Shown here: positions 4,749 through 60,299 of the stretch, piece after piece
Layout of the letters: each line of letters starts with the position of its first letter
Position numbering within the stretch: the first letter of the stretch is position 1
Source of the DNA: Thermoanaerobaculia bacterium
GTDB taxonomy: Bacteria; Acidobacteriota; Thermoanaerobaculia; Gp7-AA8
DNA: 64,000 bases
Reading direction: 5' to 3'
Assembly: GCA_035626775.1 (NCBI GenBank)
Contig: DASPNA010000078.1
Location: forward strand, 42,771-106,770
The notes under the pieces: generated by a model
The model's input: only the letters and a program-made list of their open reading frames with translations
Databases searched by the model: none
Told to the model about the DNA's origin: nothing
Program-made: the position numbers and the translations under genes

Positions 4749-7616
<2,868 letters not shown>

Positions 7617-8564
7617 GGCTCTACTCTCCTCATGCCTTTCGCTGCTGCTTTCGAGAACTGACTACGCAGCAGAGGAGGGCCGTTCGATCACTGCAAAGGA
7701 GATCGGCCGGATGCGCTTCGCGAGCTCTGTTACGAACGCCGCCGGGTTGCCCGATGTCCCTCGATCGAATTTCCGTCCCCTGCCTCCCCCAACACGGCTC
7801 GCGGGCGACCCGTTTTTCGACGGCAGCTCCGCTGAATGGGGGCGCTGACGGCGAATCGCGGATGGCGAGGAGCTAAATCACAACATCACCGAAATGCCGG
7901 CCGGAACGACTTGGTGGAAGGGGTTTGAGGCACAGCAGTCTTGACTTTGACCGTCACCTGATAGCCGCGGATCTGGAGACGAACCGAACGGACCGGGGGA
8001 TGGTTTGCAGGACGTGTATCGTGCTTCAAATCCTTCATAGTCCTCCCTCACTTCCTCGCATTGTCGTTGTGGCGAGTAAGCTACGCCCGCACCTCGGGGA
8101 AGTCAAGCCAACACCCCCAACATCTTGTGGTGCCCGCGATGAAGAACACAACATCCTGCGTAACTATTCGACTTTGCAGTAAGTTACGTCTTTGCGTCCC
8201 GTCGGGTCCGGCAGAAGCTTTTCCGCCTCGGTTCCACCGCTTATCCGCCGGTTCTAGACAGGCTTTCCGCAGGCTTTTGCACAGGGTCGATTATGCAGAT
8301 TTCTTCGGGAATCCACATGTTCTCCACAGGATTCGGACTAGTTATCGTGCCATAAATCAGCAGCGATACAGCGCTGATTTTCATCAGCTTTTTCGTGCTT
8401 TTTCCATGCGTAGGGAGGCGGACTGGACTGAAAGAAAAAGGGCGAAAGAAGGGCGGAATCCGAAAACTGCGGAAAAGTCGGCGAGGGCAGACGCGGGCAC
8501 TACATCTTGTGGGCGAGAGAGGCAGTGCACACACAATGTGGCACGTGGAACATTTTTCCGCCTG

Positions 8565-9524
8565 CTAGTAGTCGCCGCTCGCTCCGGCGCCGCCGAAACT
8601 GCCGCCGCCGGTTGAGGGCCGCGGTTCCGGAGCGTGCGTCGCAGGCTGAAATGTGACGGTCGCGCCGATTTCGGCCAGATCGTCGACCGGTGTGAGCCCG
8701 ATCGGCGTGAGGACGAAGCCGCGCGTGTGGCCGCGCAGGAGACGCGAAATCGCGAACGTCAGCGCGAGGAGCAACGCGCCGGCAAGAGCGAACTTCGCTT
8801 CGAGCGGCGTCGGGATCTTCTCGCCGAAATCGCGCGCGGCGATGGCGAACGCGATGATGGCGGCGAAGAACATCGCGTGATGGCGCTTCGCGACGGCGAG
8901 ACCGATCGCGATCAGGCCAAACACCGCGTAGAGAACGATGGTCACATCACGCCACGCCGCGTCCGCGACGAGGCGTCCCGCAATCGGCATCACCAGCGCG
9001 ATGGCGATCCAGAGCGCCTCGGTCGTCGGGCGACGCCAGGTGCGCAGCAGCGTGAGACACGCGCCGAGCGCGATCAGCAACGCGGCGAGCGTGCCGACAT
9101 CGAATCGTTCTTCGAACCAGAGCATCACGAAGATCGCGGAGACCGCGCCGTACAGCGGATTGCGTACGCGCGCGCCGGCGATCGCCGCTGCGGCCGCGAG
9201 CACCAGCATCGATTCCGGCGTGCCGCTGCGCGGCAGCTCGCTGATGAGCGCAAGCAGACCTCCACCCCACAGCGCCGCTTCGACGCCAGTGAAGAACCAT
9301 CGCCGCGCGCCGATCAGGTATTCGGCCAGCACGATCGAAGCGATACCGGTGATCAGTCCTTCATTGAATGCGTAGAACCCGCCGATGGCGATGCACGTGA
9401 GCACGAAGAAGACGAGCTGCGCGAGGATCCCGTACGTGCGCCACGGCACCTCGAGTTGCGCTTCGGTGACGTGCGGGCGAAGCCGCCTGCGCAGATGGAG
9501 ATTGCGCTCGTGTTGCGCGTTCAT
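8565..9524 (-). CDS. Polytopic membrane protein, with a Gly-rich C-terminus ending in GDY
   Basis: Start ATG 9524 makes an ATGA overlap with the stop of the upstream gene (plus-strand tcat at 9521-9524). At least eight hydrophobic helices. Confidence 0.6.
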   Translation of the reverse strand: MNAQHERNLHLRRRLRPHVTEAQLEVPWRTYGILAQLVFFVLTCIAIGGFYAFNEGLITGIASIVLAEYLIGARRWFFTGVEAALWGGGLLALISELPRSGTPESMLVLAAAAAIAGARVRNPLYGAVSAIFVMLWFEERFDVGTLAALLIALGACLTLLRTWRRPTTEALWIAIALVMPIAGRLVADAAWRDVTIVLYAVFGLIAIGLAVAKRHHAMFFAAIIAFAIAARDFGEKIPTPLEAKFALAGALLLALTFAISRLLRGHTRGFVLTPIGLTPVDDLAEIGATVTFQPATHAPEPRPSTGGGSFGGAGASGDY

Positions 9525-10444
9525 GTGCGCCACTCCCGCACGCGCGAGTGAATCGCGAGGAGGCCGGCGATTGCGCCGACCATGGAAAGCGGGACGAACA
9601 GGAACATCCACTCTTTGTCGTCCACCACTTCATAGAACAGGACGTTGATGGCAAGCACCGCATAGAGGAACGAGTAAAGGACGAACAACTCGCCACGCCT
9701 GCTGATCCCCCAGACCGTGACCATTCCGGCGATGATGAGCACCAGCAGACACCCGATGACGGCGGTGTGGTTGTCGAACATCAGCGCGCACGAGCCGGCG
9801 AACGCAATGTTCGCCGCGAAGTGTTCGAACGACGGCGCGAAATCGCGCGCTTCGCGTTGCGGATCGAACCGCTCATGCGCCGAACGCCACATCAGCAGCA
9901 ACAGCGCGCACGCGAACGCGCGGATCGCATAGTCGGTCGCGGCGCTCGATTCCACGTCGCGCACGCCCAGCCACGCCGTCACCGCCGTGATGGACAGCGA
10001 CAGCACGATGCGCGAGCGGAAGACGTACGCCGTGACCGCGTGCCCGATGGCCGTGATCAGAAAGTGCCGTGGCCACGCGTCGCCGAGCAGATGAAACTGC
10101 GACTCGATGAACGCGACGTCGCCGCTGAGCAGCAGCGCGCCGAGGAGGAGGACGTAGTCGTCGACGATTGAGGCGCGTGCACGACGCCACCAGGCGAACG
10201 CGTAACACGCCGCCGCGGCAACCGCCATCAGCACGGCCAGCGCGAGCGGCCCGATGCGATCGAGGTTGTTCTTCAGCACCAGCCCGGCCGCGGTGGCGAG
10301 CAGCAACGCTCCACCCCACGACAGGACGCGCAGCTCGGGATGGAGCGAGAAGACCTCGCGGCGCTCGCGCGCGATCAGCTCGTTCGTGTTCTTGTCGCCG
10401 AGGATGGGACGGAGCTGTTCCAGCTCCGGCTCGTAGGAGAGCAT
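9521..10444 (-). CDS. Polytopic membrane protein, paralog-like neighbour
   Basis: ORF MLSYEPELEQLRPILGDKNTNELIARERREVF... with multiple TM helices. Confidence 0.6.
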   Translation of the reverse strand: MLSYEPELEQLRPILGDKNTNELIARERREVFSLHPELRVLSWGGALLLATAAGLVLKNNLDRIGPLALAVLMAVAAAACYAFAWWRRARASIVDDYVLLLGALLLSGDVAFIESQFHLLGDAWPRHFLITAIGHAVTAYVFRSRIVLSLSITAVTAWLGVRDVESSAATDYAIRAFACALLLLMWRSAHERFDPQREARDFAPSFEHFAANIAFAGSCALMFDNHTAVIGCLLVLIIAGMVTVWGISRRGELFVLYSFLYAVLAINVLFYEVVDDKEWMFLFVPLSMVGAIAGLLAIHSRVREWRT

Positions 10445-10460
10445 CGACGAATGTTACTGC

Positions 10461-10571
10461 GACCCCTCATCCGCCTTCGGCACCTTGTCCCCTCGCCGAG
10501 GGGAGAAGGCTACCCAGGTAGCCCTCGCCCCGCTTGCGGGGAGAGGGTGGCCAAAGGCCGGGTGAGGGGTC
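10461..10571. repeat. Palindromic element family 4 (GACCCCTCATCCG ... CGGGTGAGGGGTC terminal inverted repeats)
   Basis: Terminal inverted repeats GACCCCTCA/TGAGGGGTC, with internal hairpins CCCCTCGCCGAGGGG and CCCCGCTTGCGGGG. Related copies at 27237-27342 and 57204-57294. Confidence 0.7.
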
Positions 10572-10592
10572 GCTCTCAGCCCGTCGCTCCAG
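10569..10592. repeat. Half copy of palindromic element family 3; forms the 3' end of the CreD-like CDS
   Basis: gtcgctctcagcccgtcgctccag. On the minus strand it encodes ...SGATG plus the stop TGA of the CreD-like gene. Confidence 0.65.
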
Positions 10593-29815: not shown

Positions 29816-29918
29816 GGAAATTGAAAATTGAAAATTGAAAATTGAAAAATCGGACTCCGGGTCGCGCGAGGCACCGACTTTCGTTTTTTCAATTTTCAAT
29901 TTTCAATTTTCAATTTCG
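29816..29918. repeat. AT-rich palindrome, (GAAAATT)x4 ... (CAATTTT)x4, family 5
   Basis: ggaaattgaaaattgaaaattgaaaattgaaaaatcgg ... ccgactttcgttttttcaattttcaattttcaattttcaatttcg. A stem of about 33 bp, between pilB and pilT. Confidence 0.8.
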
Positions 29919-40540: not shown

Positions 40541-40601
40541 GCGTTACTTACGCTTTTCGTCGTTACTTACGCTTGACTTTCGCCCTGTTACCGCCTACAT
40601 T
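40541..40601 (+). promoter_or_regulatory. Putative lexA promoter, with a direct-repeat candidate operator
   Basis: TTGACT (40573-40578), 17 bp, then TACATT (40596-40601). GCGTTACTTACGCTT is repeated at 40541 and 40560, overlapping the -35 box. Confidence 0.4.
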
Positions 40602-40620: not shown

Positions 40621-41247
40621 ATGAAATACCTGACAGAGCGGCAGCGTGACATTCTCAACTTCATCCGCGACTTCCAGAAAGAGCGGGGGGTGGCGCCAAC
40701 CCACCGCGAAATCTGCGACCACTTCGGGTTCTCCTCCTACGGCACGGTCTACAAACACCTCTCCCTGCTCGAGAAGAAGGGGCTCATCCGTCGCGACTGG
40801 AACCAGAAGCGAGGTGTCGAGCTCGTGGAGCAGGCGGAGAAGCCGGCAGCGATGCGGGAAAGCGCGCCGAACACGCGCGAGCTCCCGCTCTTCGGCTACA
40901 TCGCAGCGGGCCGGCCGCTCGATGTCGAAGTCTCCGCCGAGACGATCACCGTCCCGGAGCACCTCACCACCCGCGGCGAGAACTACGTGCTGAAGGTGCG
41001 TGGCGACTCGATGGTCGAGGACGGGATCCTCGACGGCGATCTGGTGATCATCGCCCGCCGCGAACGCGCCGACAACGGGGAGATGGTCGTCGCGAACGTG
41101 AACGGGGAAGTCACGCTGAAGCGTCTCTATCAGGAAGGCGAAAAGGTCCGGCTGCAGCCGGCCAATTCGATGATGAATCCGATCTACGCCGCTGCCCGTG
41201 ACGTCGCGGTGCAAGGCGTGGTGGTCGGTCTGATGCGCAGGTTCTGA
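40621..41247 (+). CDS. lexA: LexA repressor
   Basis: MKYLTERQRDILNFIRDF...; the AAGRP cleavage-site region; S24 peptidase VRGDSMVEDGILDGDLVII. Confidence 0.9.
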   Translation: MKYLTERQRDILNFIRDFQKERGVAPTHREICDHFGFSSYGTVYKHLSLLEKKGLIRRDWNQKRGVELVEQAEKPAAMRESAPNTRELPLFGYIAAGRPLDVEVSAETITVPEHLTTRGENYVLKVRGDSMVEDGILDGDLVIIARRERADNGEMVVANVNGEVTLKRLYQEGEKVRLQPANSMMNPIYAAARDVAVQGVVVGLMRRF

Positions 41248-59852: not shown

Positions 59853-60299
59853 TCATTTCAACCGGTGTAACTCCTTTACGAACGCATCGACGTCCTCGAA
59901 CCGGCGATACACCGATGCGAATCGGACGTACGCGACCGGGTCGAGATCGCGCAATCGATCCATGACCAGCGTGCCGAGCGCCTGCGACGAGATCTCGCGC
60001 TCGGAGGTGTCGGACATGGCCGACTCGATGTTGTCTGCGATGCGTTCGAGCTCCGCCTGCGGCACGGGCCGTTTGCGGCACGCGATCTGGAGCCCACGCA
60101 TGAGCTTATTACGCTCGTAGGCCTCGCGGCGTTGATCGCGCTTCACGACCTGGAACGTCGGCAGCTCGATCTTCTCGTAACTGGTGAAGCGGCGCTCGCA
60201 GCGGGCGCACTCGCGCCGGCGACGGATGACCTCTCCTTCGCGCCCCTCGCGCGAGTCCACCACGCGGTCTTCGAGATTCCCGCAGAACGGGCACCGCAT
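59853..60299 (-). CDS. nrdR: Transcriptional repressor NrdR
   Basis: MRCPFCG...CARCERRFTSYE zinc ribbon plus an ATP-cone. Confidence 0.9.
   Translation of the reverse strand: MRCPFCGNLEDRVVDSREGREGEVIRRRRECARCERRFTSYEKIELPTFQVVKRDQRREAYERNKLMRGLQIACRKRPVPQAELERIADNIESAMSDTSEREISSQALGTLVMDRLRDLDPVAYVRFASVYRRFEDVDAFVKELHRLK

Follow-up and report, generated by a model that had tools for sequence, protein, structure and literature searches.

The 948 bp in front of nrdJ, the gene for a class II (B12-dependent) ribonucleotide reductase (RNR), in a stretch of 64,000 nucleotides from a Thermoanaerobaculia bacterium (contig DASPNA010000078.1 of assembly GCA_035626775.1) are most readily understood as the control region and 5' part of a small-gene/nrdJ operon that would be under the control of NrdR and DnaA and would contain an intercistronic attenuator RNA. 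A probability of about 0.6 is given to this reading. It is carried by I) two canonical predicted NrdR operators; II) a conserved promoter in the middle of the gap, followed by a small gene that is strictly linked to nrdJ; III) a phased array of DnaA-box-like 9-mers between the two operators; and IV) a conserved structured RNA between the small gene and nrdJ. Here, the whole 64,000-nucleotide stretch is referred to as the window, and the 948 bp as the gap.

The gap extends from the ATG of nrdJ at 7616 to position 8565, where the upstream neighbour gene (minus strand) stops. The NrdJ product carries the Pfam domains Ribonuc_red_lgC (3e-144), Ribonuc_red_2_N and TSCPD. The GC content is 51-54% at 8000-8500 as compared to 60-69% in the flanks, and this region is the second-lowest-GC spot of 100-200 bp in the whole window. 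An earlier reading made from the letters alone (the sequence-only reading) had described a leader of about 950 bp that is richer in AT than its surroundings, and in length and composition that description holds.

4749-7616, minus strand: nrdJ, class II (B12-dependent) ribonucleotide reductase, 955 aa (Pfam)
7624-7631, minus strand: Shine-Dalgarno sequence GAGGAGAG of nrdJ; an (A/G)AGGAG block lies 7-12 nt before the ATG in all aligned relatives

NrdJ relatives with 61-90% identity come mainly from metagenome-assembled genomes of Thermoanaerobaculia/Acidobacteriota, the most distant ones from other phyla. By these relatives the window is assigned to uncultured Thermoanaerobaculia (Acidobacteriota), in a lineage from soil. 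The clade set used below consists of 16 genome loci with NrdJ identities of 76-90%, all of which have the long gap; with the window, this makes 17 sequences, and in the closest of the 16 loci the gap can be aligned over most of its length. A profile search with the small open reading frame (ORF) added 80 metagenome loci, and many of the counts given here refer to 71 distinct relatives. An identical NrdJ sequence is on record only in soil metagenome contigs from JGI.

Predicted NrdR operators

An NrdR site is made up of a pair of 16-bp boxes, each of them partially palindromic with C4, A6, A8, T9, T11 and G13 conserved, and of a linker of 15-16 bp between them (PMC13584703). When the 64 kb were scanned for box pairs with at least 11 of the 12 conserved positions, exactly two were found, both inside the gap, against a chance expectation of 0.13 such pairs per 64 kb of first-order random sequence.

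8115-8130 CCCCAACATCTTGTGG and 8146-8161 ACACAACATCCTGCGT: predicted NrdR operator pair B, 6/6 and 5/6 positions, 15-bp linker
8497-8512 GCACTACATCTTGTGG and 8529-8544 ACACACAATGTGGCAC: predicted NrdR operator pair A, 6/6 and 5/6 positions, 16-bp linker
8542-8552, minus strand: conserved TGTTCCACGTG adjoining NrdR box A1, with GTTCCACGTG nearly invariant in 14 of the 17 aligned sequences

Pair B, which ends 8 bp upstream of the conserved -35 element described below, is present in 68 of the 71 relatives (it was not found in L009, L010 and L126), nearly always at the same distance from the small gene, i.e., at -122 to -126 from its ATG in about 63 and at a shifted position in five. Pair A lies 382 bp farther upstream. 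It scores 6+6 in L003 and L013 and is found in about 20 of the 71 relatives at a looser cut-off (at least 10 of 12), and its distal box alone is much more widely conserved than the whole pair. Among 80 loci from several phyla, most also have the NrdR core motif ahead of nrdJ, frequently in tandem copies at a distance of 31-33 bp. As a separate observation, TGTTCCACGTG includes a CACGTG palindrome and is retained even in relatives whose second pair-A box has decayed.

The 64 kb contain exactly two copies of the 11-mer ACATCTTGTGG (8120-8130 and 8502-8512), which correspond to positions 6-16 of one NrdR box in each pair. The sequence-only reading had seen this duplication and counted its copies correctly, at coordinates (8121-8131 and 8500-8510) that are off by 1-2 bases. 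It had also reported that no canonical NrdR boxes were obvious and had suggested a search for them. That search has now been run and turned up canonical boxes, the outcome that the same reading had named as counting against it: two canonical pairs lie in the gap, each with 11/12 positions and with linkers of 15 and 16 bp. The NrdR sites of the gap are therefore canonical predicted operators, an ordinary, textbook part of the locus.

NrdR itself had been recognized in the window at 59853-60299 (minus strand), which is confirmed by a match to TIGR00244 (186 bits). The nrdR gene is unlinked to nrdJ, 52 kb apart. No NrdR box pair was found upstream of nrdR in the 64-kb pair scan, so that autoregulation of nrdR seems absent.

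The putative promoter and the small gene

Between pair B and nrdJ, a putative promoter and a short gene were found that are shared by nearly all relatives.

8078-8106, minus strand: putative sigma-70-type promoter with -35 TTGACT (8106-8101), a 17-nt spacer and -10 TAGCTT (8083-8078), from comparative evidence
8041-8047, minus strand: Shine-Dalgarno sequence GGGAGGA of the small gene, kept as GGGAGGA or GGGAGG before the ATG in relatives
7886-8038, minus strand: unannotated small gene encoding a strongly basic protein of 50 aa, MKDLKHDTRPANHPPVRSVRLQIRGYQVTVKVKTAVPQTPSTKSFRPAFR, from conservation and coding signature

In 66 of the 71 distinct relatives, the promoter motif, TTGAC(A/T)-N16-18-TAnnnT, is found at -67 to -71 relative to the ATG of the small gene; in four more it is displaced by 9 or 22 nt, which gives 70 matches out of 71, and only L041 is without it. 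The GGGAGGA sequence and the ATG follow about 30 nt downstream of the promoter. With a conserved promoter at 8078-8106, in mid-gap, the region is not one leader of about 950 nt, as had been proposed. Only some 455 nt are therefore likely to be transcribed ahead of nrdJ, and 153 of these belong to the small gene.

The small gene is present in all 17 clade sequences. In each of the 88 loci that are long enough for the check, it lies directly upstream of nrdJ, and the spacer between the two measures 61-472 nt. Among 70 distinct sequences the entropy at codon positions 1, 2 and 3 is 0.28, 0.14 and 1.24 bits, respectively; the stop column reads TGA, TAA or TAG at the same aligned position, and purifying selection acts over nearly the whole length. 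The family comprises 417 homologs at E<=0.01, with lengths of 45-59 aa, all of them "hypothetical" or unnamed. No Pfam domain was found in any of the 417, and the copy of the window has no Pfam or NCBIfam match. In a profile search among 1.84 billion representatives the family forms 23 clusters at 50% identity, and no tie to a larger or known protein was found there. The only confident feature predicted by AlphaFold2 is a beta-hairpin at residues 16-33, with basic disordered tails on both sides; the protein further has a C-terminal Arg and a nearly invariant central segment. The statement that no convincing protein is encoded in the gap has thus been overturned: judged by its strong ribosome-binding site (RBS), its codon signature and the 88/88 linkage to nrdJ, the 50-codon ORF at 7886-8038 (minus strand) is a real protein-coding gene. 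Because it is so strictly linked to nrdJ, its product is suggested to be a partner or regulator of deoxynucleoside triphosphate (dNTP) synthesis.

In the public gene call of L161, the JGI contig of the window (Ga0196978_1000116), the 948-nt gap has no gene; a small protein with 98% identity (P0062) has been called on other contigs. In L160 (1601-1825) the small ORF is frameshifted or fused, giving 74 aa that reach the nrdJ start, which may represent an assembly error or a decayed copy. Three longer ORFs in the gap, 8241-8534 (minus), 8061-8615 (plus) and 7925-8182 (plus), have no Pfam/NCBIfam match; they were rejected as genes because they show no conservation at the protein level and overlap with blocks that are conserved as DNA motifs.

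The DnaA-box-like array

The two NrdR pairs enclose a series of 9-mers that resemble DnaA boxes.

8219-8476: DnaA-box-like 9-mer array between the two NrdR pairs
8408-8400, 8386-8378, 8328-8320, 8317-8309 and 8299-8291, minus strand: array units in the TGTGGATAA orientation
8283-8275, 8271-8263, 8260-8252 and 8249-8241, minus strand: further array units in the TGTGGATAA orientation
8239-8231 and 8227-8219, minus strand: weaker array units in the TGTGGATAA orientation
8476-8468, opposite to the main array: unit TTTTCCGCA in the opposed orientation

Scans were made for 9-mers matching TTATCCACA or TTWTNCACA with at most one or at most two mismatches. At up to two mismatches, the array of the window holds six matches in 236 bp, as compared to 55 in the whole 64 kb on both strands. 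At up to one mismatch to TTWTNCACA, 16 of the 17 clade sequences have 4-8 matches within ~370 bp, as compared to 0.28 per kb throughout the window; only two matches are found in L041, the most divergent clade sequence. The words enriched in the array of the relatives (GCGGAAA, CTGCGGA, TGTGCAA and CTGTGGA) can be read as variants of TGTGNAWAA, which is the DnaA box TTWTNCACA as written on the complementary strand. A perfect E. coli R-box, TGTGGATAA, is present at one and the same aligned position in six of the 16 genome loci of the clade. The sites keep fixed positions in the 71 relatives, almost all at -200 to -480 from the small-gene ATG, and their spacing peaks sharply at 11, 22, 33-34, 44-45 and 55-56 bp. 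No such cluster was found upstream of nrdJ outside the clade (loci L016-L080). A 30-bp stretch of 33% GC (8374-8403) and A-rich 11-mers lie inside the array. The published DnaA-trio pattern, (NAN)x3, part of a basal unwinding system (PMC8287927), is too permissive to discriminate here. The array thus consists of predicted DnaA-type sites that are clustered beyond chance, phased, and conserved across the Thermoanaerobaculia clade.

The fact that these sites are phased at 11 bp could also fit direct repeats of another regulator, e.g., a winged-helix response regulator of the OmpR/PhoB type. Regulators of this type use an 11-bp repeat as well, and the fourth base of Pho boxes is a C. The array unit CTGTG(C/G)A(A/T)AA with its 11-bp repeat has a superficial likeness to Pho-box-type direct repeats, and many units differ from the DnaA consensus at 1-3 positions. 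However, the commonest strong units match the relaxed DnaA consensus TGTGNAWAA exactly, the perfect R-box recurs in place in the clade, the fourth base of the array unit is a G, unlike the C of Pho boxes, and DnaA control of ribonucleotide reductase has a precedent. A response regulator as the ligand of the array is therefore considered distinctly improbable.

A second alternative accepts DnaA as the ligand and takes the array with its A/T-richer core as the chromosomal replication origin of the clade, or as a titration locus like datA or DARS, and not as a site of transcriptional control. More than ten boxes in the same orientation with an 11-bp repeat, together with one opposed box, make up the layout for DnaA oligomerisation seen in origins, and such an arrangement is known from oriC of E. 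coli. The array is also the densest box cluster in every 12-kb locus, it holds the second-lowest-GC 100-200 bp of the window, including the 30-bp stretch of 33% GC, and nrdJ is co-oriented with a fork that would leave it. On the other hand, no inversion of GC skew was found at the array, either in the window or in 12 related loci, where only 4-60 kb per side are readable; in the 12 loci the skew of the nrdJ-sense strand has a mean of -0.04 in the upstream part and of -0.08 over nrdJ itself. The four genes beyond the array (8565-14578, minus strand) point towards it and would be head-on to the fork if it were an origin. No dnaA signature was detected in the 64 kb or in the 16 loci, and other Thermoanaerobaculia, closed chromosomes included, show no such cluster at nrdJ. 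Moreover, the distance between array and promoter is fixed, and the A/T-rich core is only moderately A/T-rich. The tests by skew, orientation and dnaA are weak because no whole chromosome is readable, and an origin or titration locus is, on balance, rated as quite unlikely. If an array bracketed by NrdR sites were an origin, dNTP sensing would be coupled directly to initiation.

The structured RNA between the small gene and nrdJ

Downstream of the small gene, the predicted transcript contains a long hairpin close to the nrdJ start.

7660-7793, minus strand: long, irregular, unbranched hairpin RNA of ~135 nt with helices P1-P6 (covariance model R1, covariation)
7642-7672, minus strand: lineage-specific hairpin CUGCUGC...GCAGCAG, from sequence reading and fold, situated where most relatives have a U-tract

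The long hairpin is found in 42 loci, i.e., the window and 41 others. Every member folds on its own, at -46 to -61 kcal/mol (-53.5 kcal/mol for the copy of the window). Model R1 scores 93 bits in the window and 52-138 bits in the other loci, with one sense copy per locus; antisense scores are only 20-34 bits, and no extra copies were found in the 64-kb window. In the model-fitted alignment 90.4% of the cells are paired as compared to 81.8+-0.4% in shuffles, none of 500 shuffles reaches the observed value, and 26 of the 43 hairpin pairs show compensatory double changes; in controls with slid partners, pairing falls to 41-57%. Since G-U pairs are frequent, the fold exists only in the sense RNA. 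Taken from this covariation, the hairpin is a conserved structured RNA on the sense strand of the 5' region. Conserved nucleotides are present in its internal loops and in its apical loop (GAAMAGGAUCCR).

In 61 of the 71 distinct spacers a hairpin ends at most 3 nt before a T-run, mostly 17-50 nt before the nrdJ ATG. This hairpin is either the long one or, in another subclade, a plain GC hairpin of 19-26 nt, and we infer that in most relatives it serves as an intrinsic terminator stem. The T-run is missing from the window and likewise from L081 and L082, its two closest relatives, so the term terminator does not apply to the hairpin of the window; in the same three sequences GAGCUC or GAGAGC replaces the GGAUCC of the apical-loop motif. 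Where most relatives have the U-tract, the window has the lineage-specific hairpin listed above, and L081 and L082 have comparable non-U sequence. The 3' arm of the hairpin, CCCUCCUC, can pair with the Shine-Dalgarno sequence of nrdJ when the 5' arm is excluded from the fold.

Several relatives carry variants of the long hairpin. L011 (4634-4868) and L151 (582-816) have an insertion of ~100 nt in its apical part, and the apical helices are lost in L002/L100 and in L118. These variants, together with L084/L090, to which we return below, are potential natural deletion mutants.

Searches of Rfam gave no relevant match, either at the gathering score over the 64 kb, at E<=10 over 7400-8800, or on the element in four relatives. 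A cobalamin riboswitch and other Rfam families were accordingly rejected, as no covariance model matched in the window or the four relatives; the sequence-only reading had recognized no cobalamin riboswitch, and the Rfam scan that it suggested agrees. No nrdJ-associated RNA motif was found in a literature search.

It is conceivable that the hairpin is not a constitutive partial terminator but the sensing part of a new riboswitch or attenuator, which would switch nrdJ transcription in response to a metabolite (a dNTP or adenosylcobalamin) or to a protein, perhaps the small basic one. A plain terminator would not require the conserved nucleotides of the internal loops and of the apical loop (GAAMAGGAUCCR); the window, L081 and L082 have each lost both the apical-loop motif and the U-tract; the basic protein is always encoded beside the hairpin; and the RNA matches no known family. 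Nevertheless, metabolite aptamers do not usually consist of one unbranched hairpin that lacks a multi-helix junction. No conserved antiterminator pairing was found by eye, and no consistent complementarity was seen between the upstream variable hairpin and the element. Lineages that have the plain 19-26-nt terminator hairpin, or no element at all, still keep the small gene and nrdJ. A sensor function is thus held to be doubtful.

Alternatively, the 50-codon ORF might be a cis-acting leader peptide, whose translation controls read-through into nrdJ by attenuation or as an arrest peptide. It is a small ORF ahead of a biosynthetic gene, in the 5' region, and most relatives have a terminator downstream of it; its C-terminal Arg and nearly invariant central segment recall arrest peptides, and the predicted structure is mostly disordered. 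However, the ORF stops about 20-30 nt before the terminator stem in the short-spacer group and 30-120 nt before it in the long-hairpin group, often with a variable hairpin in between, so a terminating ribosome cannot reach the stem. In addition, the ORF has no runs of a single regulatory codon, 50 residues are long for a leader peptide, and purifying selection covers nearly all of it. A leader peptide therefore appears unlikely.

Interpretation of the control region

Under the preferred reading, a small-gene/nrdJ operon controlled by NrdR and DnaA, NrdR loaded with dATP/ATP would bind the box pairs and repress the promoter, as in other bacteria, and DnaA would oligomerise on the phased array and tune the promoter to the replication status, as at nrdAB of E. 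coli. In most relatives, the hairpin with its U-tract would terminate part of the transcripts before nrdJ. Such partial termination would uncouple the levels of the small protein and NrdJ, and may offer an entry point for another factor. In the copy of the window, where the U-tract and the apical motif are lost, the hairpin more probably affects mRNA processing or stability, or access to the nrdJ RBS; the CCCUCCUC arm may pair alternatively with the 5' arm or with this RBS.

A number of observations weigh against this reading, in which every functional step is reached by inference. The array lies 110-370 bp upstream of the -35 element, which is far for a classical operator; its more than ten phased sites exceed the known DnaA-regulated promoters and resemble origins or titration loci; and the array of the window is weaker than that of the relatives, with one exact box and four with at most one mismatch. 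The alignment used for covariation was fitted to the model, which favours structure, and the fold of a whole 300-nt segment is no more stable than shuffles (z = -0.8). The hairpin of the window has no U-tract, and almost the whole RNA element is missing from L084 and L090, which makes it dispensable. A terminator scan misses the long hairpin, and a consensus promoter scan reports nothing in the window or in two relatives, because the -10 element matches the consensus at only three of six positions. Since these scans missed both, the promoter and long-hairpin calls rest on comparative analysis.

The sequence-only reading had taken the gap as a non-coding leader of about 950 nt with a non-canonical operator, a small RNA or a decayed mobile element. 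The length of the gap, its lower GC content and its repeats are all real, and the expectation of an unusual region that carries regulatory information proved right, with operators and a structured RNA. As a whole, however, that account is contradicted by the canonical NrdR boxes, the real gene, the conserved promoter in mid-gap, the synteny in 71 relatives and the single-copy RNA element, and it is now extremely improbable. A mobile-element remnant or miniature inverted-repeat transposable element (MITE) was rejected: the RNA element occurs once in the window and once in every locus, and the whole architecture is syntenic and conserved in position in the 71 distinct relatives.

Going beyond the preferred reading, it may tentatively be proposed, as one speculative possibility, that the small basic protein and the ~135-nt hairpin form a new regulatory module for class II RNR in which the RNA is an attenuator responsive to the small protein, a nucleotide or cobalamin. 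If this were true, it would add a post-initiation layer to the control by NrdR and DnaA.

Comparison with known systems

In E. coli, nrdAB has DnaA 9-mers together with NrdR control (PMC2500167). The likeness to the gap lies in the NrdR boxes and DnaA-type 9-mers upstream of RNR genes, in E. coli along with Fis and IciA (PMC2500167; PMC12176259). E. coli nrdAB encodes a class Ia enzyme, whereas the gap precedes a class II nrdJ. Two 9-mers lie near the E. coli promoter, as compared to more than ten phased boxes over ~260 bp, 110-370 bp upstream, in the gap, and only the gap has a second predicted NrdR pair beyond the array. Two NrdR pairs in one promoter region, 113 bp apart, are found at nrdAB of Listeria monocytogenes (PMC13584703). 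The operators of Listeria nrdAB and of Streptomyces coelicolor nrdRJ have the same 16-bp boxes and 15-16 bp linker upstream of an RNR operon. The two pairs of the gap, by contrast, are separated by 382 bp and enclose a DnaA-type array, and, unlike in S. coelicolor nrdRJ, nrdR is outside the operon, 52 kb away and without boxes of its own.

For structured RNA, a cobalamin riboswitch upstream of the RNR genes is known from Streptomyces nrdABS (reference cited in PMC13584703). This switch and the hairpin of the gap are both structured RNAs in the 5' region of an RNR operon. However, the RNA of the gap has no match to this switch in sequence or structure (Rfam E>10) and is an unbranched hairpin, and the gap serves a B12-dependent enzyme, whereas the known cobalamin switches repress the B12-independent one.

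Attenuators made up of a leader ORF and an intrinsic terminator are known from pyrL-pyrBI and tnaC-tnaA of E. coli. The shared layout is a short translated ORF with a terminator behind it, directly in front of the structural gene. Here, however, the ORF ends well before the stem, has 50 codons and is conserved as a protein, and the terminator stem is a conserved multi-helix hairpin of ~135 nt. Arrays for DnaA oligomerisation are known from oriC and datA of E. coli, and the array shares with these the same-orientation boxes with gaps of about 2 bp (11-bp repeat) beside an A/T-richer stretch; it differs by the absence of a skew switch and of dnaA/dnaN nearby, and in that its position with respect to a promoter is fixed.

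There is thus a precedent for DnaA boxes at an RNR promoter, but not for a phased array bracketed by two NrdR operators. Neither the small protein nor the hairpin RNA can be assigned to a described family.

Other repeats and neighbouring elements

Two further features of the gap had been listed by the sequence-only reading.

8361-8395, plus strand: hairpin with T-run on the strand opposite nrdJ (terminator scan; stem 8361-8388, then TTTTT)
8159-8188: inverted repeat CGTAACT-N16-AGTTACG, arms 8159-8165 and 8182-8188

The 8-bp hairpin with a T-run that had been pointed out earlier does exist on the plus strand, but it is not conserved: its 3' stem half is unconserved in L001, L002, L003, L005, L013 and L039. 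It was therefore rejected as a functional terminator; it lies within the A-rich part of the array and is probably incidental. The inverted repeat had likewise been seen correctly, apart from its spacer, which is 16 nt and not 15. Its promoter-proximal half lies inside GAATA(C/G)TTAC, next to NrdR box B1, and is conserved in most relatives; of the distal half, only TAA(C/G) is conserved. A resemblance of this repeat to repeats upstream of lexA had also been claimed. The lexA promoter (window 40542-40573, ATG at 40622, plus strand) carries CGTTACTTACGC as two perfect direct copies with a period of 19 bp, directly before TTGACT. These copies are a candidate for a LexA operator, of an unusual type built from direct repeats. 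Two degenerate CGTTACTTACGC units with three and four mismatches and the same 19-bp period are present in the gap; as 1.13 such pairs are expected by chance per 64 kb, the resemblance is at chance level and a link to the lexA repeats is unproven.

The genes around the gap encode membrane proteins, unknown proteins and a formyltransferase. Elsewhere in the window, between two plus-strand ORFs, a palindromic element at 29817-29917 consists of (AATTGAA)x4, a GC-rich core of ~38 nt and (TTCAATT)x4; with 13% GC over 30 nt, nowhere else in the window is the GC content as low. Tandem-7-mer elements of the same architecture were seen in L006, L007, L009, L011, L012, L013, L014, L039, L096, L107-L109, L113, L148 and L155, with 7-mers that differ from those of the window (AGCTCTT, AGCTCAC, CTGAAAC, CGGAGAC and CAACCGA) and at variable places, either between the small gene and nrdJ or right behind the upstream gene. 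They look like a REP/MITE-like family of the clade. One copy in a relative gave weak, microRNA-like Rfam matches. In L012 (12006-12053, plus strand) a match to the Acido-Lenti-1 RNA reaches 35.9 bits, just below the gathering score of 37.

Biological significance

Ribonucleotide reductase sets the supply of DNA building blocks, and its control by NrdR, in E. coli also by DnaA, is the best-known link between the nucleotide pool and replication. The locus described here suggests that a poorly known, uncultured soil phylum uses NrdR and DnaA as well, in a much more elaborate layout. The small nrdJ-linked protein of 50 residues and the structured RNA are concrete candidates for new RNR regulators, and with the phased array, the action of DnaA oligomers at sites other than an origin could be studied on a defined substrate.

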